Positions 11,214 through 43,188 of a stretch of 64,000 nt of DNA are shown in pieces; position 1 is the stretch's first letter; every line of letters starts with the position of its first letter. Origin of the DNA: a virus (taxonomy: Duplodnaviria; Caudoviricetes); IMG/VR virus record IMGVR_UViG_3300028888_000101, positions 1 through 64,000 of that record; one strand, given 5' to 3'. The position numbers and the translations under genes are program-made. Under the pieces are notes generated by a model. It was given only the letters and a program-made list of their open reading frames with translations, was not told the DNA's origin and ran no database searches.

Positions 11214-11247
11214 TATTCAATTAGAAATTCTAATATTAAAATAAATT

Positions 11248-11333
11248 GGTTGGTTAGTTTAACTGGCAGAACACCGGAGACGTATCCTGCAAGGTTCCAT
11301 CCGGAGATTCAGGTTCAAGTCCTGAACGAACCT
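11248..11333 (+). tRNA. atypical tRNA-Cys-like element with a 21-nt anticodon loop region
   Basis: Acceptor GGTTGGT/ACGAACC (one mismatch), D stem GTTT/GAAC, anticodon stem CCGGA/TCCGG, T arm TCAGG-TTCAAGT-CCTGA, U73; CTGCAAG lies inside the expanded loop. Confidence 0.7.
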
Positions 11334-11338
11334 ATATT

Positions 11339-11415
11339 GGTTCTAACAGACTCTCGGCAATTAAGCTAAGGAGCACTCAAAGGGGCGATGGGTTTTAGTT
11401 TCGCACTTAGAACCA
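11339..11415 (+). ncRNA. degenerate cloverleaf-like RNA
   Basis: Terminal stem GGTTCTAA/TTAGAACC with three weak internal arms; no T-loop consensus. Confidence 0.4.
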
Positions 11416-11419
11416 TTTT

Positions 11420-11520
11420 GGTGAGGTAGCTCAACGGGAAACCAAGGCAGAGCTTCGGTGATTGAAAGGGATATTTTCATCTGAATACCCTTAGTGGAGG
11501 TTCGAGTCCTCCCCTCACCT
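11420..11520 (+). tRNA. atypical tRNA-like element with expanded D loop and rebuilt central arm
   Basis: Perfect acceptor GGTGAGG/CCTCACC, D stem GCTC/GAGC with a 17-nt loop, T arm GGAGG-TTCGAGT-CCTCC; central AAGGG..CCCTT arm. Confidence 0.7.
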
Positions 11521-12980: not shown

Positions 12981-13090
12981 AATACCCTCTAAAACGTTCA
13001 TAGATTGCATATAACACGTCTTTTTAGGGTAGTTAGTATAATTACTTGTTTTAAGGGTCGAACGTCACTACAGCAATCTATGACGTGGTT
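12980..13090. repeat. dispersed intergenic element, copy 1 (other copies at about 44563-44650 and 50835-50917)
   Basis: Reverse complement of 12980-13016 matches 50881-50917 at 30/37 positions; TAGTATAAT core; internal inverted repeat CATAGATTGC/GCAATCTATG. Confidence 0.7.
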
Positions 13091-13129
13091 TTTAAGTATT
13101 AAATAAATACATCTAAGGTGGATTAACTA

Positions 13130-13360
13130 ATGAACAAAAGACTTCTCAGTTATGCTAAACTTCTTAAAGAGAGATTACTTAATGACGGTTGTACATTTAA
13201 TAATCAGAAACAATCTGAATTTGGCGTTATACAAGAATATTACAGAAACGGTATAGATTCTAAAATCATAGAACATACGGTAAACAGTATATCTTGCCAG
13301 TACAGACTTGAACTTGGTAAAGACATAATAAAGATATTTTTATATATGGAGAGAGGATGA
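13130..13360 (+). CDS. hypothetical protein
   Basis: RBS-like AGGTGG. Confidence 0.6.
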   Translation: MNKRLLSYAKLLKERLLNDGCTFNNQKQSEFGVIQEYYRNGIDSKIIEHTVNSISCQYRLELGKDIIKIFLYMERG

Positions 13361-13677
13361 CTTGTACAGACATGATTGAAGAGATAGTTGAACTTGCCAC
13401 TGTAAGATATAAGAAACTGTCTAAGGGTAGCAAAGAGTTCGACCTTATCAATATGCACAAAGAAGTCGTAATAGACGGTATTCCTTTTCATTATTGGCGT
13501 GAGTACGGTGTCTATAAGGTATGTGAGTATCTTAAAGAGAAAGTACCTGAGGCTGATATAGAATGTGTGCTTGACGGTAATGATTCTAATATCGTTATTA
13601 CACTTACAGACGAAGAGGAGAGAAATCTTAATCCTAAACTTTGTCACTTACTTAAAAACTTTTGGTCTGTTTCTTAG
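13357..13677 (+). CDS. hypothetical protein
   Basis: ATGA overlap, GGAG. Confidence 0.7.
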   Translation: MTCTDMIEEIVELATVRYKKLSKGSKEFDLINMHKEVVIDGIPFHYWREYGVYKVCEYLKEKVPEADIECVLDGNDSNIVITLTDEEERNLNPKLCHLLKNFWSVS

Positions 13678-13698
13678 CAGATTCTAATATTATATTAA

Positions 13699-13762
13699 TG
13701 ACATGTTTTTATGCATGACACCTCCTTCGGACCTTTGTACTGTCAGTATGAAGGTCCTTTTT
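13699..13762 (+). ncRNA. candidate small RNA 1 with anti-Shine-Dalgarno CACCTCCTT
   Basis: Promoter motif at 13681, CACCTCCTT at 13719-13727, terminator GGACCTT/AAGGTCC plus T5. Confidence 0.55.
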
Positions 13763-13795
13763 ATTTTCAAAAATCTGATTCTAATATTATTAGTG

Positions 13796-13923
13796 TAGTT
13801 ATCTTGGTGTATCCGTATTTTCCCTCCCACCCACGGATATGTCATGTGATTACCTCCAAATGTTTTCGGATACCCTGTTGTCTGTTTTGTTCATTTTATC
13901 GGGCATCAGGGTATCCTTTTTTT
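13796..13923 (+). ncRNA. candidate small RNA 2 with C-rich loop and GATTACCTCC
   Basis: Promoter motif at 13778; hairpin TATCCGT/ACGGATA with CCCTCCC loop; terminator GGATACCCTG/CAGGGTATCC plus T7. Confidence 0.6.
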
Positions 13924-13977
13924 AACTTTACTGTCTGAGATATAATTCTATTATTAAAGTTATAAAGGAGAAAACTC

Positions 13978-14145
13978 ATGGAAGAAAAAACTTTTGCTCA
14001 GTGGTGGAAAGATAACGAGGAAGATGTTCTTGCTAATTTCCCTCACTATTCGGATGTAGAAATCATTAAACGACTTTGCCTTGATTGTTGGAAGACACAG
14101 AACACAAACTGTGAAATCAAAATGGCACAGCTTAGTGAGGTGTAA
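13978..14145 (+). CDS. small hypothetical protein (55 aa)
   Basis: Promoter motif and AAGGAG RBS. Confidence 0.65.
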   Translation: MEEKTFAQWWKDNEEDVLANFPHYSDVEIIKRLCLDCWKTQNTNCEIKMAQLSEV

Positions 14146-14147
14146 CA

Positions 14148-14336
14148 ATGGATGAAGAAAAACCTAATTTGATTCCTTGTAATTGGCAGGAATGTAAGAA
14201 CAACAAAGACTGGTTCTATGTTGGTTGTATTAATCAGAAAGTAAACATTTGGAAATTGGCAAAGAAGAAACACATAACTCTTATACAGTTGTTTCAGTCT
14301 TGTCCATACTGTGGCGGCAGGGTGGTAATGAAATGA
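14148..14336 (+). CDS. Cys-rich microprotein
   Basis: CxWxxC...C and CPYCG. Confidence 0.65.
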   Translation: MDEEKPNLIPCNWQECKNNKDWFYVGCINQKVNIWKLAKKKHITLIQLFQSCPYCGGRVVMK

Positions 14337-14464
14337 GAGTAAAAATGTTTTGGGAATGGCTGCATAACATTGGCTATAGTGACAATGAACTTGATAACCT
14401 TCCGATAAACCATCTTGTAGCTTTACAGGACGAATACATAATGTTGATGTACGGAGACAACTAA
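14333..14464 (+). CDS. small hypothetical protein
   Basis: ATGA overlap. Confidence 0.5.
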   Translation: MRVKMFWEWLHNIGYSDNELDNLPINHLVALQDEYIMLMYGDN

Positions 14465-14781
14465 TGAACAGCAATGAAGTAGCAAATAGAATCAACAGAT
14501 ACTTTAACGGACAGTGCAAGGCATATTCCGTAAGTCAATATAAGGTTGAAGTTGATGTAAGTAAAGAACTATCTACTGACACTTGGAAAAGATGTGCTGA
14601 TGCTTTGGAAATGAAAGATAACAGTAAGTCTATTCCAAACAGTTATAAATACGGAGATGTTACTGTAGTATTTTTCTATGGTGCATTACAGAAGTTTACA
14701 CAGGACAGGAGAACAAATTGGACAATCTCATCACGACCACAGAACTATCGAAAAGATACGGCAGAACAGCAGCCAGAATAA
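14464..14781 (+). CDS. hypothetical protein
   Basis: TAATG overlap, GGAG. Confidence 0.6.
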   Translation: MNSNEVANRINRYFNGQCKAYSVSQYKVEVDVSKELSTDTWKRCADALEMKDNSKSIPNSYKYGDVTVVFFYGALQKFTQDRRTNWTISSRPQNYRKDTAEQQPE

Positions 14782-18988: not shown

Positions 18989-19106
18989 AAGAGATTTCTG
19001 TTAACAATTTGTCGATTTGCTCCTGAGTAAGTGGTGTAACATCCTTGAGGTACTCATCACTTACTTTTGATTTTTCATCAACATCTTTCGGACACTTGTT
19101 TTCCAT
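18978..19106 (-). CDS. 42-aa peptide resembling the FliM N-terminal CheY-binding motif
   Basis: GGAGGT RBS then ATG at 19106; C-terminal LTQEQIDKLLTEISS. Confidence 0.6.
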   Translation of the reverse strand: MENKCPKDVDEKSKVSDEYLKDVTPLTQEQIDKLLTEISSKD

Positions 19107-19110
19107 ATCA

Positions 19111-19386
19111 CTACCTCCAAGTAATAACTCTTCTTGAATTAAAGAACTGGAATAACCATTTCTCACTAAGGCACTTCTTGAAAGCGTTTCTGTACTCTGG
19201 AATAGAAAGTCTGATAGCTTCATCTGGATTAGTCTTGCTGCCGTACTTCTTTACGATACAGAGAATTTCATTTCCATCTCTTTCCCAAAGAACCTGAAGT
19301 GTATTGTCTTTGTTTGTGGCCATTACACTAGCCTGTCTGATTGATTTGAGATAAGCCTCTTTTCCTGTACATCTAACCATTTCCAT
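19111..19386 (-). CDS. hypothetical early protein
   Basis: AGGAGG RBS, sigma70-like promoter upstream. Confidence 0.7.
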   Translation of the reverse strand: MEMVRCTGKEAYLKSIRQASVMATNKDNTLQVLWERDGNEILCIVKKYGSKTNPDEAIRLSIPEYRNAFKKCLSEKWLFQFFNSRRVITWR

Positions 19387-23149: not shown

Positions 23150-23240
23150 ACTATTTTTGGCCTCCTAAGCATTAATAGTTTTTGAGAACCTTGAGCGGAC
23201 CTCACAACTCACATCCATATCCGCTTAAGGTTCTCTTTTT
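23148..23240 (+). ncRNA. 3'-UTR hairpin displaying anti-SD GCCTCCTAAG, followed by a terminator
   Basis: AAACTATT/AATAGTTT stem with GCCTCCTAAGC in the loop; GAGAACCTT(G/T)AGCGGA-type 15-bp terminator plus T run. Confidence 0.5.
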
Positions 23241-23996: not shown

Positions 23997-24199
23997 TACT
24001 AATTATATACGCTTCTCTTAAAGAACGGATGATTTACCATTTTTGAAACTGTGGTGGACTGATTCTTCTCCACAGTAAGGAAAGAATCTTTATCTTTTAC
24101 ATCAGTGAAAGTAATGTAATCTTTGCACATTAAACAAAGATATTTTCTACCGTTGATATTACAGAATATTCTACTCATCTTTATTGCTCCTAAAAATAA

Positions 24200-24224
24200 T
24201 CAGGGTGACGAATCACCCTGATTT
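24200..24224 (-). terminator. intrinsic terminator of the DUF932 island
   Basis: AATCAGGGTGA/TCACCCTGATT. Confidence 0.7.
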
Positions 24225-24234
24225 AATGTTAGAA

Positions 24235-25164
24235 TTAAGCTGATTTCAGAATATCTTCTGCTGCTGAAAGCATTGAATATCCGTTCATGAAGTTGGCCAT
24301 TTTCCAATCGGCACTTGTAGAAGTTTTGCGGAGAGGTTCACCGTTTGAAACGAAATCAGCTACCGAATTGTAAAGACCCCAGGCAGTTCCCTTGAAGTTC
24401 TGAAGGTCTTCTTTATTGTGATAGATGTCTGCAATTGCAAGACCAACTTTTTCAGTAGACTTTTCAGAAAGATTCATCTTCTTGAACAATTCACGGAAGA
24501 AAGCCTCTTCACGAACTTTCTGTCCTGCCATTTTGATTGCATCTTCTTTTACACGTTCAGTGTAATTAAGTGCAAGTCCGAGAGCCTGTTCTGCTTCAGC
24601 CTGTTTACCTTTGATTGATTCTGTATGGCGAAGATTCCAAGTTCTCTGAGCACCGTTGATGGCAAGCTGCAAAGTATTTGAACATACTACTCTCACGCAG
24701 CTCACAGACGCTATTAATCCTGTTGTACCATCATGACTATTCGATACACATAAATAATTTTCAGTAGTATCACCAACCAAATCAATATCTGGCAATCTAA
24801 CCAACATAAAGGTTCGTTTACCGTTGAAAAGTGAACCTGCGGTTTCATATCTGCACTCAACACCTCTTGAATTTTCTATAATGTTATTTGTAAATTCAAA
24901 AGCGTCTTTGTTCTGTACAATTCTGTACTTACCTTTTACCATCCCAAGAACATCTTTTGTATCAGAACGTACATTTACAAAAAAGTCTGGAATTTCGGTT
25001 CCGTCTTTGAGAAATACAGGCTGTTGTACAACATCCCATCCAAGATTAGCTAATCTAATAGCTTCGTCTGAAGTGGCTGTTCCATCAATAACAGTTCCTA
25101 AACCATGCCAAGGTCTAATTCCATTTCCGCTAAACATAGTATCATGTTCCATGATTCCGTGCAT
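24235..25164 (-). CDS. DUF932/DUF945 (TIGR03299-like phage/plasmid) protein
   Basis: PWHGLG, L.WDV, Y.IVQN.DAF, ETAGSL..G...F, NSHDG, VRVVC.NTL, H..GTAWGLYN. Confidence 0.9.
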   Translation of the reverse strand: MHGIMEHDTMFSGNGIRPWHGLGTVIDGTATSDEAIRLANLGWDVVQQPVFLKDGTEIPDFFVNVRSDTKDVLGMVKGKYRIVQNKDAFEFTNNIIENSRGVECRYETAGSLFNGKRTFMLVRLPDIDLVGDTTENYLCVSNSHDGTTGLIASVSCVRVVCSNTLQLAINGAQRTWNLRHTESIKGKQAEAEQALGLALNYTERVKEDAIKMAGQKVREEAFFRELFKKMNLSEKSTEKVGLAIADIYHNKEDLQNFKGTAWGLYNSVADFVSNGEPLRKTSTSADWKMANFMNGYSMLSAAEDILKSA

Positions 25165-25235
25165 AAAAGCCTCCTAAGATTTATTATTTGTAATAATAAT
25201 ATATAATAAAATAACATCTTTGTAAAGTATTACGG

Positions 25236-40785: not shown

Positions 40786-43092
40786 ATGGCAATTAAATTA
40801 GCAGATACATTAAAGCCAATGGGAGATTTCCCTGCGGCAGATGCAAGTGATGTTGAAATCACGTTACATGATGAAACAAAGAAGTCTATTCAACAGGCTT
40901 ATGAAGATGGCGACCTCGGTGGTGGAAGTAGTGATGTAGACCAAACTTACGATGCAGATTCACCAAGAGCACAGGCAGGTAAAGCTGTTGCCGAGGCTAT
41001 TCAGGAAATATTTTTGGAAAATCCTGATTCGACAATTACCGCTCCGGTAGCTTCCACAGTTACTGTTTCTGAAAGTAAGGATATTTCTGGCATGTTCAAG
41101 GATGACCGAATTATTCTTCCAAGTGGTTCAACAATTAAAGGTCATGTGATTACAAACATGTCACACACTTTCGATAACTCAATTTCAGTTTCAGCCGGAC
41201 GTGTGGCAATTGACACATTTGACAGTCCTTGCGACCAAGACTACTGTTATGCCAATTCAGGCGTCACTAGCTATGCTCCTTTGAGTTCTAATGTAACAAA
41301 CGTTGTGGGAACCTATCTCAATGCCGGACAGTTTAATGGTGCAGTGACAATTTCTGATACAATTAATAACATGTATCAGACATTTGAAAATGCAGCAAGT
41401 TTCGATAGACCAATTACAATTCCTTCAGGAGTTACCAATCTCACTTCCACATTTAAGGGAGCTTCTTCTTTTAATCAACCAATTACAATCCCTTCTGGAG
41501 TTACAGACCTCAATTCTACTTTTAATGGTGCTGCAGCTTTCAACCAACCTATCACTATTCCTGCTGGAGTTACAGACCTCAATTCTACCTTCAAGGGAGC
41601 TTCCTCTTTCAACCAGCCTATTACAATCCCTGACGGATGTACTGATATGTTTGATATGTTCAATGGTGCAGCAGCTTTCAACCAGCCTATTAGTATTCCA
41701 GATACTGTTAATACTATTGGTTCTCTTTTCGAAGGTTGTGCTGCACTTGATTGTGATGTAAGTATTTCTTCTCAAATCACTAATGTTCATGGTTTAATGA
41801 AGGGTTGTGAGAGCTTTAATGCAAATGTTACTCTCAATGGTGAAGTAACCGACATGTCTAGCATGTATGAGAACTGTTCTTCTTTCAATCAGCCAATCAC
41901 TATTCCAAACACAGTTACTAATGCTACATATGCTTTCTCTGGTTGTCCGAATTTCAACCAGCCTGTAGGAAATCTTGACTATGTTGAAAACGCCTCTTAT
42001 ATGTTTAATAATTGTTCTAATTTCAATCAGCCCGTAGGAAACCTTGACAATCTCATTTATGGCACTAATATGTTTAGAAGTACAAAATTCAATCATCCTG
42101 TAGGTAACCTCAGCAATCTTGTTGACGGCAATTACATGTTAGGTGTTAGCTTCAACCAACCATTAAACCTTATCAGTCTTGTTAATGCCGAAGCTATGTT
42201 TATGGGCTCTGGTATTACTCAGCCTGTAGGTAATCTCAACAATCTTGTTCATGGTGCTCACATGTTTGAGTCATGTCTGAGTTTCAACCAGCCCGTAGGT
42301 AACCTCAGCAATCTTGTTAATGGTACTTATATGTTTAGCTACTGTTATTCTTTCAATCAGCCTGTAGGCAGCCTTACCAGTCTTGTTCAAGGTTCATATA
42401 TGTTTGGAAATTGTGAGAACTTCAATCAACCTGTTGGTAATCTTGACAATCTTGTTGATGGCTCCACCATGTTCATGAGCTGTAAAAACTTCAATCAACC
42501 TGTAGGAAATCTTGACAATCTTGCTAATGGTTCTAATATGTTCTCGCGTTGTTCTAATTTCAACCAACCATTAAACCTTGACAATCTTGCTAATGGTTCT
42601 AATATGTTCTCGCGTTGTTCTAATTTCAACCAACCTGTCAATCTCTCTAACTTAACTAATGGTTTTCAGATGTTCTCGCGTTGTTATAATTTCAACCAAC
42701 CTGTTGGTAATCTTGACAATCTTACTGATGGTTCGCTCCTGTTTACTCAATGTCCCAATTTCAACCAACCTGTAGGCAATCTTTCCAATCTTACCAACGG
42801 TACTTCTATGTTCTCGTTTGCTCGCAGCTTCAACCAACCTGTTGGTAATCTTGACAATCTTACTGATGGTTCGCTCATGTTCTCTATGAGCAGCTTCAAC
42901 CAACCTTTGTATCTTGGTGATAAAATTACTAACATGCAGGAGATGTTGTCCTCTTCTCCTTGGAAGTCCGTAGTTCATCTTCCAACTACAGTGCCTCTGT
43001 CTACTTCTAACTATATCTACAATTGTCTTGTAAATGGTAACTGTGGTGTGACAGTTCCTGCAGCAAACATCTTCAATGACCGTGTTCTGTAG
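40786..43092 (+). CDS. DUF285/BspA-like 23-aa repeat solenoid protein (adhesin-like)
   Basis: About 24 FNQP repeats in two subtypes. Confidence 0.85.
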   Translation: MAIKLADTLKPMGDFPAADASDVEITLHDETKKSIQQAYEDGDLGGGSSDVDQTYDADSPRAQAGKAVAEAIQEIFLENPDSTITAPVASTVTVSESKDISGMFKDDRIILPSGSTIKGHVITNMSHTFDNSISVSAGRVAIDTFDSPCDQDYCYANSGVTSYAPLSSNVTNVVGTYLNAGQFNGAVTISDTINNMYQTFENAASFDRPITIPSGVTNLTSTFKGASSFNQPITIPSGVTDLNSTFNGAAAFNQPITIPAGVTDLNSTFKGASSFNQPITIPDGCTDMFDMFNGAAAFNQPISIPDTVNTIGSLFEGCAALDCDVSISSQITNVHGLMKGCESFNANVTLNGEVTDMSSMYENCSSFNQPITIPNTVTNATYAFSGCPNFNQPVGNLDYVENASYMFNNCSNFNQPVGNLDNLIYGTNMFRSTKFNHPVGNLSNLVDGNYMLGVSFNQPLNLISLVNAEAMFMGSGITQPVGNLNNLVHGAHMFESCLSFNQPVGNLSNLVNGTYMFSYCYSFNQPVGSLTSLVQGSYMFGNCENFNQPVGNLDNLVDGSTMFMSCKNFNQPVGNLDNLANGSNMFSRCSNFNQPLNLDNLANGSNMFSRCSNFNQPVNLSNLTNGFQMFSRCYNFNQPVGNLDNLTDGSLLFTQCPNFNQPVGNLSNLTNGTSMFSFARSFNQPVGNLDNLTDGSLMFSMSSFNQPLYLGDKITNMQEMLSSSPWKSVVHLPTTVPLSTSNYIYNCLVNGNCGVTVPAANIFNDRVL

Positions 43093-43188
43093 TAACTAAA
43101 GTTATTCCTAAAGTTTAACCCTATTATCTTCGTAAAAGAAGGTAATGGGGTTTTATTTTTCTAATATTAAAGTATAAGGAGGAATAAT

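Follow-up and report, generated by a model that had tools for sequence, protein, structure and literature searches.

A predicted small RNA with an open anti-Shine-Dalgarno stretch and its long-form sister family in tailed phages of the rumen

What is encoded in a 300-nt gap at the end of a phage operon, in which a promoter motif, a sequence resembling the 3' end of 16S rRNA and a terminator follow each other on the same strand? The locus lies near 13.7 kb of the window, by which we mean the whole stretch of DNA analyzed here, corresponding to the first 64 kb of an 83.5-kb IMG/VR record (35% G+C; completeness estimate of 59%). Whole-genome searches (G000) cover approximately 83 kb, and about 40% of the phage is outside the sample. 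The genome encodes a portal protein, a tail sheath, homing endonucleases, helicases and a tRNA-Gln, and therefore belongs to an uncultured tailed phage whose tail is contractile. The relatives come without exception from ruminant gut metagenomes, among them the rumen assemblies of Stewart 2019, Xie 2021 and Wilkinson 2020, and the source environment of the phage itself is the cattle rumen. A blastn comparison with GenBank phages gave no match to the locus, and Pfam and PHROGs analysis of the phage genes gave no pointer to the host; the only hint is the presence of a Dp-1-type holin in relatives together with strong Shine-Dalgarno (SD) sequences, which would point to a Bacillota host.

All credible genes near 13.7 kb are encoded on the plus strand. 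The gap is located between a gene encoding a 106 amino acid protein (13357-13677) and a gene encoding a 55 amino acid protein (13978-14145), and contains two promoter-to-terminator units: unit 1, which corresponds to the predicted small RNA 1 (sRNA1), and unit 2, which corresponds to sRNA2. The corresponding loci of the relatives were collected via the gene upstream of the gap.

Unit 1 begins with the phage promoter motif GATTCTAATATTAT (13680-13693, plus strand), with TAATAT as the probable -10 element. The 14-mer motif has 11 matches with up to two mismatches versus 2.2 expected, a number reached in 0 of 100 shuffles, and the exact 13-mer is present in seven copies in the 83-kb genome (reversed control, 0). 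When one mismatch is allowed, TTCTAATATTA is found a few bases 5' of approximately 20 gene starts, and among the genes behind a motif of this type are the tRNA-Gln, sRNA2, a tRNA-like gene and the gene that follows the gap, as well as structural and replication genes. The flanks upstream of the motif copies show no conserved -35 box, and therefore a phage-specific factor likely recognizes the motif. Three long ORFs, at 74920, 77558 (a DnaB-like helicase) and 79804 (a helicase), start 5-8 nt past the motif, which places the transcription start approximately 5-6 nt past it. The motif-to-start spans of these ORFs in G000 are 74903-74922, 77539-77560 and 79788-79806 (the last two outside the window); the encoded proteins have 316, 472 and 581 amino acids, respectively, and there is no space for an SD, so that as read from the sequence their messages are probably leaderless or nearly so. 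Elsewhere in the genome, a copy of the motif at 11228 precedes a tRNA-like gene cluster (window 11245-11520, plus strand), where Rfam detects a tRNA at 11420-11520 (36 bits) that is not reported by ARAGORN. On the minus strand (window 24180-24234), a G+C-rich hairpin and a T-run come immediately after the motif copy TTCTAACATTA, and behind them lie an SD and a start codon; the arrangement forms a promoter-proximal terminator-like element in a 5' leader.

The terminator of unit 1 follows the promoter motif by about 35 nt. This intrinsic terminator (13729-13767, plus strand) consists of a 13-bp hairpin with a 3-nt loop (13729-13757) and the T-run TTTTTATTTT (13758-13767); it is the only terminator-like site in a consensus scan of positions 13000-14500, and it also closes the upstream operon. 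Taking the start site given by the promoter geometry and the end given by the T-run, the predicted sRNA1 has approximately 70 nt (13697-13767, plus strand). The plus strand folds with -22.4 kcal/mol (z = -4.8; frequency of the minimum-free-energy structure, 0.36) and the minus strand more weakly (-18.5 kcal/mol). In addition, the terminator hairpin contains two G-U pairs, and a change in L137 converts a G-C pair into a G-U pair; both fit an RNA of the plus strand only. The first-pass annotation had described a unit of about 65 nt (13681-13762) with its own promoter and terminator. The enriched motif, the terminator of the consensus scan and the fold bear this out, and the place was right, but the proposed end cuts the T-run. 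Rfam searches of the window yielded only a tRNA at gathering score, and no match over 13680-13770 even at E-values up to 10. A leaderless mini-ORF at the 5' end of sRNA1 (MTCFYA) was considered and rejected, as its frame is lost in L164 and L139 reads M-T-stop.

Between promoter and terminator, a weak 5' hairpin of 5-7 bp with a U-rich loop (13699-13720, plus strand) is part of the minimum-free-energy fold; four of its seven pairs are broken in L138, and it is probably not functional as a structure. The conserved region, by contrast, is single-stranded (13706-13728, plus strand; unpaired probability 0.87-0.95) and comprises a U-run, GCAU and ACACCUCCUU. It includes ATGCATGACACCTCCTT at 13711-13727 and, inside the latter, CACCTCCTT at 13719-13727, the DNA form of the core CACCUCCUU, which is located between the two hairpins and, for each of the four close variants, has a predicted ensemble accessibility of 87-95% unpaired. 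A single copy of CACCTCCTT is present in the 83-kb genome versus 0.09 expected, and three of the 15 plus-strand CCTCC sequences fall in 13721-13857, most of the others being ribosome-binding sites of minus-strand genes read backwards. We take CACCUCCUU to be nine bases of the canonical 16S rRNA 3' tail, a canonical sequence that may not be that of the host. The claim that the unit carries the complement of an SD plus AUG finds weak support: GCAU is kept beside the box in L138, although the long-form relatives described below have no CAU in register. The spacing implied by the box of sRNA1 (GGAGG-UGUC-AUG) is 4 nt.

Based on this anatomy, the reading we favor, in which our confidence is evenly balanced, is that sRNA1 may be a non-coding phage RNA of about 70 nt, transcribed as a unit of its own, that acts in trans as an anti-SD/anti-start antisense RNA. 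The first-pass annotation had likewise inferred an antisense RNA that occludes ribosome-binding sites of host or phage mRNAs in trans, an interpretation for which our analysis provides partial support. The phage's own promoter class would start the RNA and the intrinsic terminator would end it; the open stretch of U-run, GCAU and ACACCUCCUU, which abuts the terminator on its 5' side, would pair with the SD and start region of mRNAs; and this pairing would keep 30S subunits off the mRNA, as with streptococcal csRNAs and the C-rich sRNAs of Bacillota. We infer the transcription of sRNA1, its ends, its pairing and its effect on translation from the sequence, and an anti-SD match of 6-7 bp is in itself generic.

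The short form is found in two lineages only, one comprising G000, L136, L137 and L164 and the other L138; it is absent from L158, L151, L152, L139/L156, L159, L160 and L008/L162. Among the close relatives, sRNA1 has two differences per 75 nt in L137 versus 3.5 expected, and one in L164 versus 4.2 (expectations taken from the neighboring gene), so that its conservation in these sequences does not appear clearly above neutral; in L164, sRNA2 has 21 differences in 139 nt (15% diverged). The diverged orthologue in L138 is more informative. Its flanking gene is 74% identical to that of the window at the nucleotide level and its sRNA2 only 59%, and the short unit is again located directly upstream of the long-form gene, though an extra gene is inserted in front. 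Between the window and L138, the promoter is identical at 14 of 14 positions, the U-run-GCAU-ACACCUCCUU stretch at 18 of 21 and the terminator at 22 of 30, versus 6 of 14 in the 5' segment, whose hairpin is not maintained. In the terminator, both partners have changed in two pairs (G-C to A-U and A-U to C-G) and one partner has changed compatibly in two others, and across five sequences 98% of its cells are paired. A promoter and an open stretch kept above their surroundings, together with a compensated stem, are the pattern that a functional small RNA would show, seen here in one diverged orthologue.

The neighbor of sRNA1 in the tandem proved to be part of a larger family. sRNA2 (13777-13927, plus strand; fold z = -5.4) is a full member of a long-form small RNA family, with the loop CCCUCCCACCC, the box UUACCUCCAAA and a terminator. 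The long-form design comprises the promoter motif, a hairpin of 12-15 bp with CCCUCCCACC as its constant loop, a single-stranded CU-rich box (for example, UGACACCUCCAAAA, AUGACACUAUCUCCUU, CACACCUCUU or GCCCUCCUAAGCAUU) and a terminator. The stems are wholly different between lineages while the loop is invariant across 11 sequences, and in the alignment of these sequences 17 of the 21 predicted pairs are changed on both sides. A covariance model built from this alignment (R1) recovers every member (window 13795-13923, L137, L164, L158, L008, L151, L152, L139, L156, L159 and L160) as well as one in L138 that was not used in building it; sRNA2 scores 126 bits (13795-13923). The gene is regularly located at the same spot as the gap or one gene further, at the end of an operon. 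Judged by this sequence evidence, the long-form family is real, and it constitutes a group of undescribed, uncatalogued small RNAs of rumen phages (myoviruses).

Several further observations concern the long form. A complement of its loop (GGUGGGAGGG) was not found in the available phage DNA, and no target of the L008 box was found at up to three mismatches in the 38-kb record of L008 itself. Aligned by hand, the sRNA2 box CAUGUGAUUACCUCCAAAUG (13838-13860, plus strand) would pair at 18 of 20 positions (G-U included) with UACUUGGAGGUAGUGAUAUG, the start region of a 42 amino acid minus-strand ORF at 19106 (window 19106-19130, minus strand). R1 also gives a weak match of 23.7 bits at window 43037-43162 (plus strand), which looks like an ordinary operon-end terminator, and one of 24.8 bits at G003:C1:10297-10384 (L171, a complete 46.7-kb relative), where ACCCUCCCACC is present and there is no clear long hairpin or T-run.

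How is sRNA1 related to this family? The promoter feature of the long form, TTCTAATATTA(T/A) directly upstream, is present exactly at 13680-13693. When the box-plus-terminator module of sRNA1 was aligned with the long form, the alignment score was reached by none of 300 shuffles for L151 and by one of 300 for L139. sRNA1 and L008 have GTTTATGC, CACACCTC, GTACTGT, CAGTA and CCTTTTTATTT in common, and sRNA1 and L139 the 5' start TGACAT. The 12-15 bp hairpin with the CCCUCCCACC loop is absent from 13694-13768, and R1 finds no match on sRNA1 in the window at E-values up to 10 and 15.4 bits (E-value 0.07) in L136. Since the box-plus-terminator module is related and the C-rich hairpin is missing, sRNA1 looks like a short paralogue of the long-form family that kept promoter, box and terminator and whose hairpin appears to have been lost by internal deletion. 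The first-pass view of a self-contained unit thus holds in itself; it missed the family kinship and the fact that the conserved stretch reaches 5' into the U-run and GCAU. Database searches for further copies added none: a loose promoter-plus-ACCTCC pattern gave 113 matches, and no locus fetched from them was related to the phage by blastn, while a promoter-plus-CCCTCCCACC pattern gave, besides the known relative, one chance match each in IMG/VR and GTDB genomes, both without the hairpin, and thereby gave no pointer to a host or prophage.

This kinship opens a different reading, namely that sRNA1 is a decaying duplicate in which the hairpin was deleted and which persists mainly for its terminator at the end of the upstream operon; transcription from its promoter would run into this terminator, yielding a short RNA with no function of its own. 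We consider this unlikely. The missing invariant CCCUCCCACC hairpin and an R1 score of at most 15.4 bits (L136) are what it would predict, as are a close-relative conservation no better than neutral and a 5' hairpin that is not kept; moreover, most relatives have the long form without the short one, and in these the operon is closed by the long-form terminator. However, five genomes from two lineages have an intact promoter, box and terminator, and L138 keeps the promoter and the box better than both the 5' segment and sRNA2. A mere terminator would require no exact promoter and no conserved open stretch, and the sRNA1-sRNA2 pair stays together despite different neighbor genes.

If sRNA1 acts as an antisense RNA, as in the reading we favor, its box should meet suitable start regions. 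The first-pass search by eye had found no matching target in the window, in agreement with our finding that no contiguous complement of at least 8 nt to ACACCUCCUU exists in the 83-kb genome or the relatives' loci; likewise, when the whole genome was scanned for duplexes with the sRNA1 5' part, nothing other than its own antisense strand lay past the tail of the distribution. Phage start sites mostly carry AAGGAG (40 on the plus strand), and none has GGAGGTG at the start. The predicted duplex energies of the box are -6.6 kcal/mol with AAGGAG, about -10 to -11 kcal/mol with AAGGAGG, about -15 kcal/mol with a long SD (AAGGAGGUG) and about -21 kcal/mol with the full 13-nt complement; on short SD sites they equal those of the 16S tail. 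Because pairing with the usual AAGGAG(G) is weak, real targets should, according to these models, carry an extended or two-part match; their place would be the host, the 40% of the phage that is unsampled, or else the start of a phage DUF932 gene.

The latter is the best in-phage candidate (start region AGGAGGCUUUUAUGCA, 25140-25189, minus strand; start codon at 25164; DUF932 assigned by Pfam). In the predicted bipartite duplex, CCUCCU pairs with AGGAGG and UGCAUGA with UUAUGCA, with more pairs into the coding region, reaching -22.6 kcal/mol, a value attained by one of 500 shuffles. With only the accessible part considered, the DUF932 start ties for first (rank 1-2) among 121 SD-bearing start regions, a result found after several looks. 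The box region of L138 differs by a sole substitution, G to A, which would replace a G-U pair of this duplex by A-U and so improve it. The DUF932 start occurs in two forms, AGGAGGCUUUUAUGCACGG in the window and L193 and AGGAGGACAGAUUAUGGCACAUGG, with one extra codon, in L190-192, which are without sRNA1; no DUF932 homologue was found in G001-G003. Taken as modeled, this start region is a weak lead. Two other pairings were discarded: the start region of gene 17121 (AUGCAAAAAC) reaches only -14.6 kcal/mol, and the pairing of sRNA1 with sRNA2 was equaled or bettered by 176 of 300 shuffles. As a separate observation, a 3'-UTR hairpin just before a terminator (window 23150-23240, plus strand) carries GCCUCCUAAGCAUU in its loop, which is complementary to the leader AAUGCUU(U)AGGAGGC of minus-strand genes at approximately 19375, 25164, 33510, 77145 and 77440; the box of the L152 small RNA (GCCCUCCUAAGCAUU) is nearly the same as that of this loop.

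With no specific phage target found, one may ask whether the resemblance to the 16S tail is itself the function; the first-pass annotation had called the unit a 16S-3'-end mimic. Here, the open CACCUCCUU would compete broadly with the 30S subunit for long SDs, leading to host shut-off, or would soak up a protein or nuclease that recognizes the 16S 3' end. We regard this as improbable, although several observations fit it: the nine bases identical to the canonical tail, SD pairing energies of CACCUCCUU that are those of the 16S tail, and two small RNA genes with strong promoters in tandem. In particular, phage genes mostly have a short AAGGAG, none has GGAGGTG at its start, and a minimum of three long phage genes, being leaderless by their appearance, would escape. 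On a bolder version, sRNA1 would be a stripped-down anti-SD tail made in bulk that outcompetes the 30S subunit on long-SD host mRNAs and spares short-SD or leaderless phage messages; if true, which we hold to be a long shot, such a tail would be an RNA-only host shut-off device. Nevertheless, the conserved stretch extends past the 16S-like part into GCAU and the U-run, which are not part of 16S rRNA, and the long-form relatives vary the box (CUCCUU, CCUCUU or ACUCC, and none in L160), a variation not expected of a strict mimic. Our literature searches returned no description of a phage RNA that copies the 16S tail. What stands of the mimicry claim is an accessible anti-SD-like CACCUCCUU; mimicry beyond simple anti-SD pairing has no specific support.

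A cis-acting role is very improbable in our assessment. Unit 1 could serve as a promoter-proximal terminator or attenuator that adjusts the amount of transcription passing from the upstream operon and its own promoter into sRNA2 and the genes beyond, or its anti-SD could fold onto a read-through SD, as its position at the operon end and directly upstream of another promoter would allow. The genome offers comparable arrangements, with a similar promoter-hairpin-T-run order before the minus-strand gene starting near 24180 and the 3'-UTR hairpin with an anti-RBS loop at 23150-23240. However, the terminator is strong, with no alternative fold evident, the unit contains no partner SD, and sRNA2, like the gene after it, is preceded by a promoter motif copy of its own, so that control by read-through seems unnecessary.

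Finally, a minus-strand feature, in which AAGGAGGTGTCATG is the ordinary ribosome-binding site and start of a 51-codon ORF (13690-13845) or of a mini-ORF, is largely refuted and retains a negligible probability: the literal SD-ATG string does lie on that strand and the 51 amino acid ORF, whose translation the first-pass annotation had named as the opposing outcome, is open in the window, but frameshifts interrupt it in each of the three close relatives (L136, L137 and L164), the peptide after the AAGGAGGTGTCATG ATG has 8, 6 or 4 residues depending on the relative, the neighbor genes are all on the plus strand, promoter motif and T-run are oriented on the plus strand, and the minus-strand hairpin is the weaker one. 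Searches for the box in IMG/VR, also as TGCATRACACCTCCTT, gave only unrelated matches in approximately the number expected by chance, mostly opposite-strand ribosome-binding sites plus starts of other phages.

Returning to the antisense reading, the closest known architecture is that of the streptococcal csRNAs, cia-dependent RNAs (CcnA-E) with two stem-loops around an unpaired anti-SD/anti-AUG stretch, which are present in several related copies per genome and for which a block of translation initiation was proposed (PMC3091779). The predicted fold and accessibility of sRNA1 likewise show two stem-loops flanking an unpaired anti-SD/anti-start stretch; however, its 5' stem-loop is weak and not conserved in L138, and sRNA1 is phage-encoded, has a phage-specific motif, is shorter (about 70 nt) and has no Rfam match on its interval at E-values up to 10. 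CiaR-dependent promoters carry the direct repeat TTTAAG-N5-TTTAAG upstream of the -10 element. No TTTAAG repeat is present in the 60 nt upstream of sRNA1, where GATTCTAATATTAT is found instead. Given the lack of a CiaR-type promoter and of an Rfam match, sRNA1 is not a member of the csRNA family.

Short antisense RNAs that block translation starts are also borne by phages, DicF of the Qin prophage and c4 of P1/P7 being cases with defined targets; neither is known to be related to sRNA1 in sequence or structure. In Bacillota, RsaE/RoxS and the Rsa RNAs with UCCC motifs use unpaired C/U-rich motifs to pair with G-rich SD regions (PMC2790875, PMC6158497). This likeness belongs to the long-form sisters, which carry CCCUCCC in a hairpin loop like the C-rich motifs of RsaE, whereas sRNA1 has no C-rich loop, only a linker box, and no Rfam match; furthermore, RsaE, RoxS and the Rsa RNAs are chromosomal regulators of stress or metabolism and not phage genes. 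With the long-form family itself, sRNA1 shares the promoter motif, the operon-end position and the box-plus-terminator module, and stands in tandem with it in two lineages, yet it lacks the CCCUCCCACC hairpin and scores at most 15 bits with R1. The proposed functional kind, an anti-SD small RNA, is already known, and what is new here is a conserved phage small RNA family and its short paralogue.

To our knowledge, a role has been assigned to few small RNAs of virulent phages, and phages infecting Bacillota-like hosts of the gut or rumen contribute almost none of these. The claim for sRNA1 is of moderate value, based as it is on sequence anatomy and one diverged orthologue. The locus represents a compact case, with one promoter, one open anti-SD stretch and one terminator beside a longer sister whose C-rich loop is invariant. 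If expressed, the short form would be a natural minimal construct for the effect of an exposed 16S-like CCUCCUU in the cell, and the sRNA1-sRNA2 pair would show phages steering translation by RNA alone.
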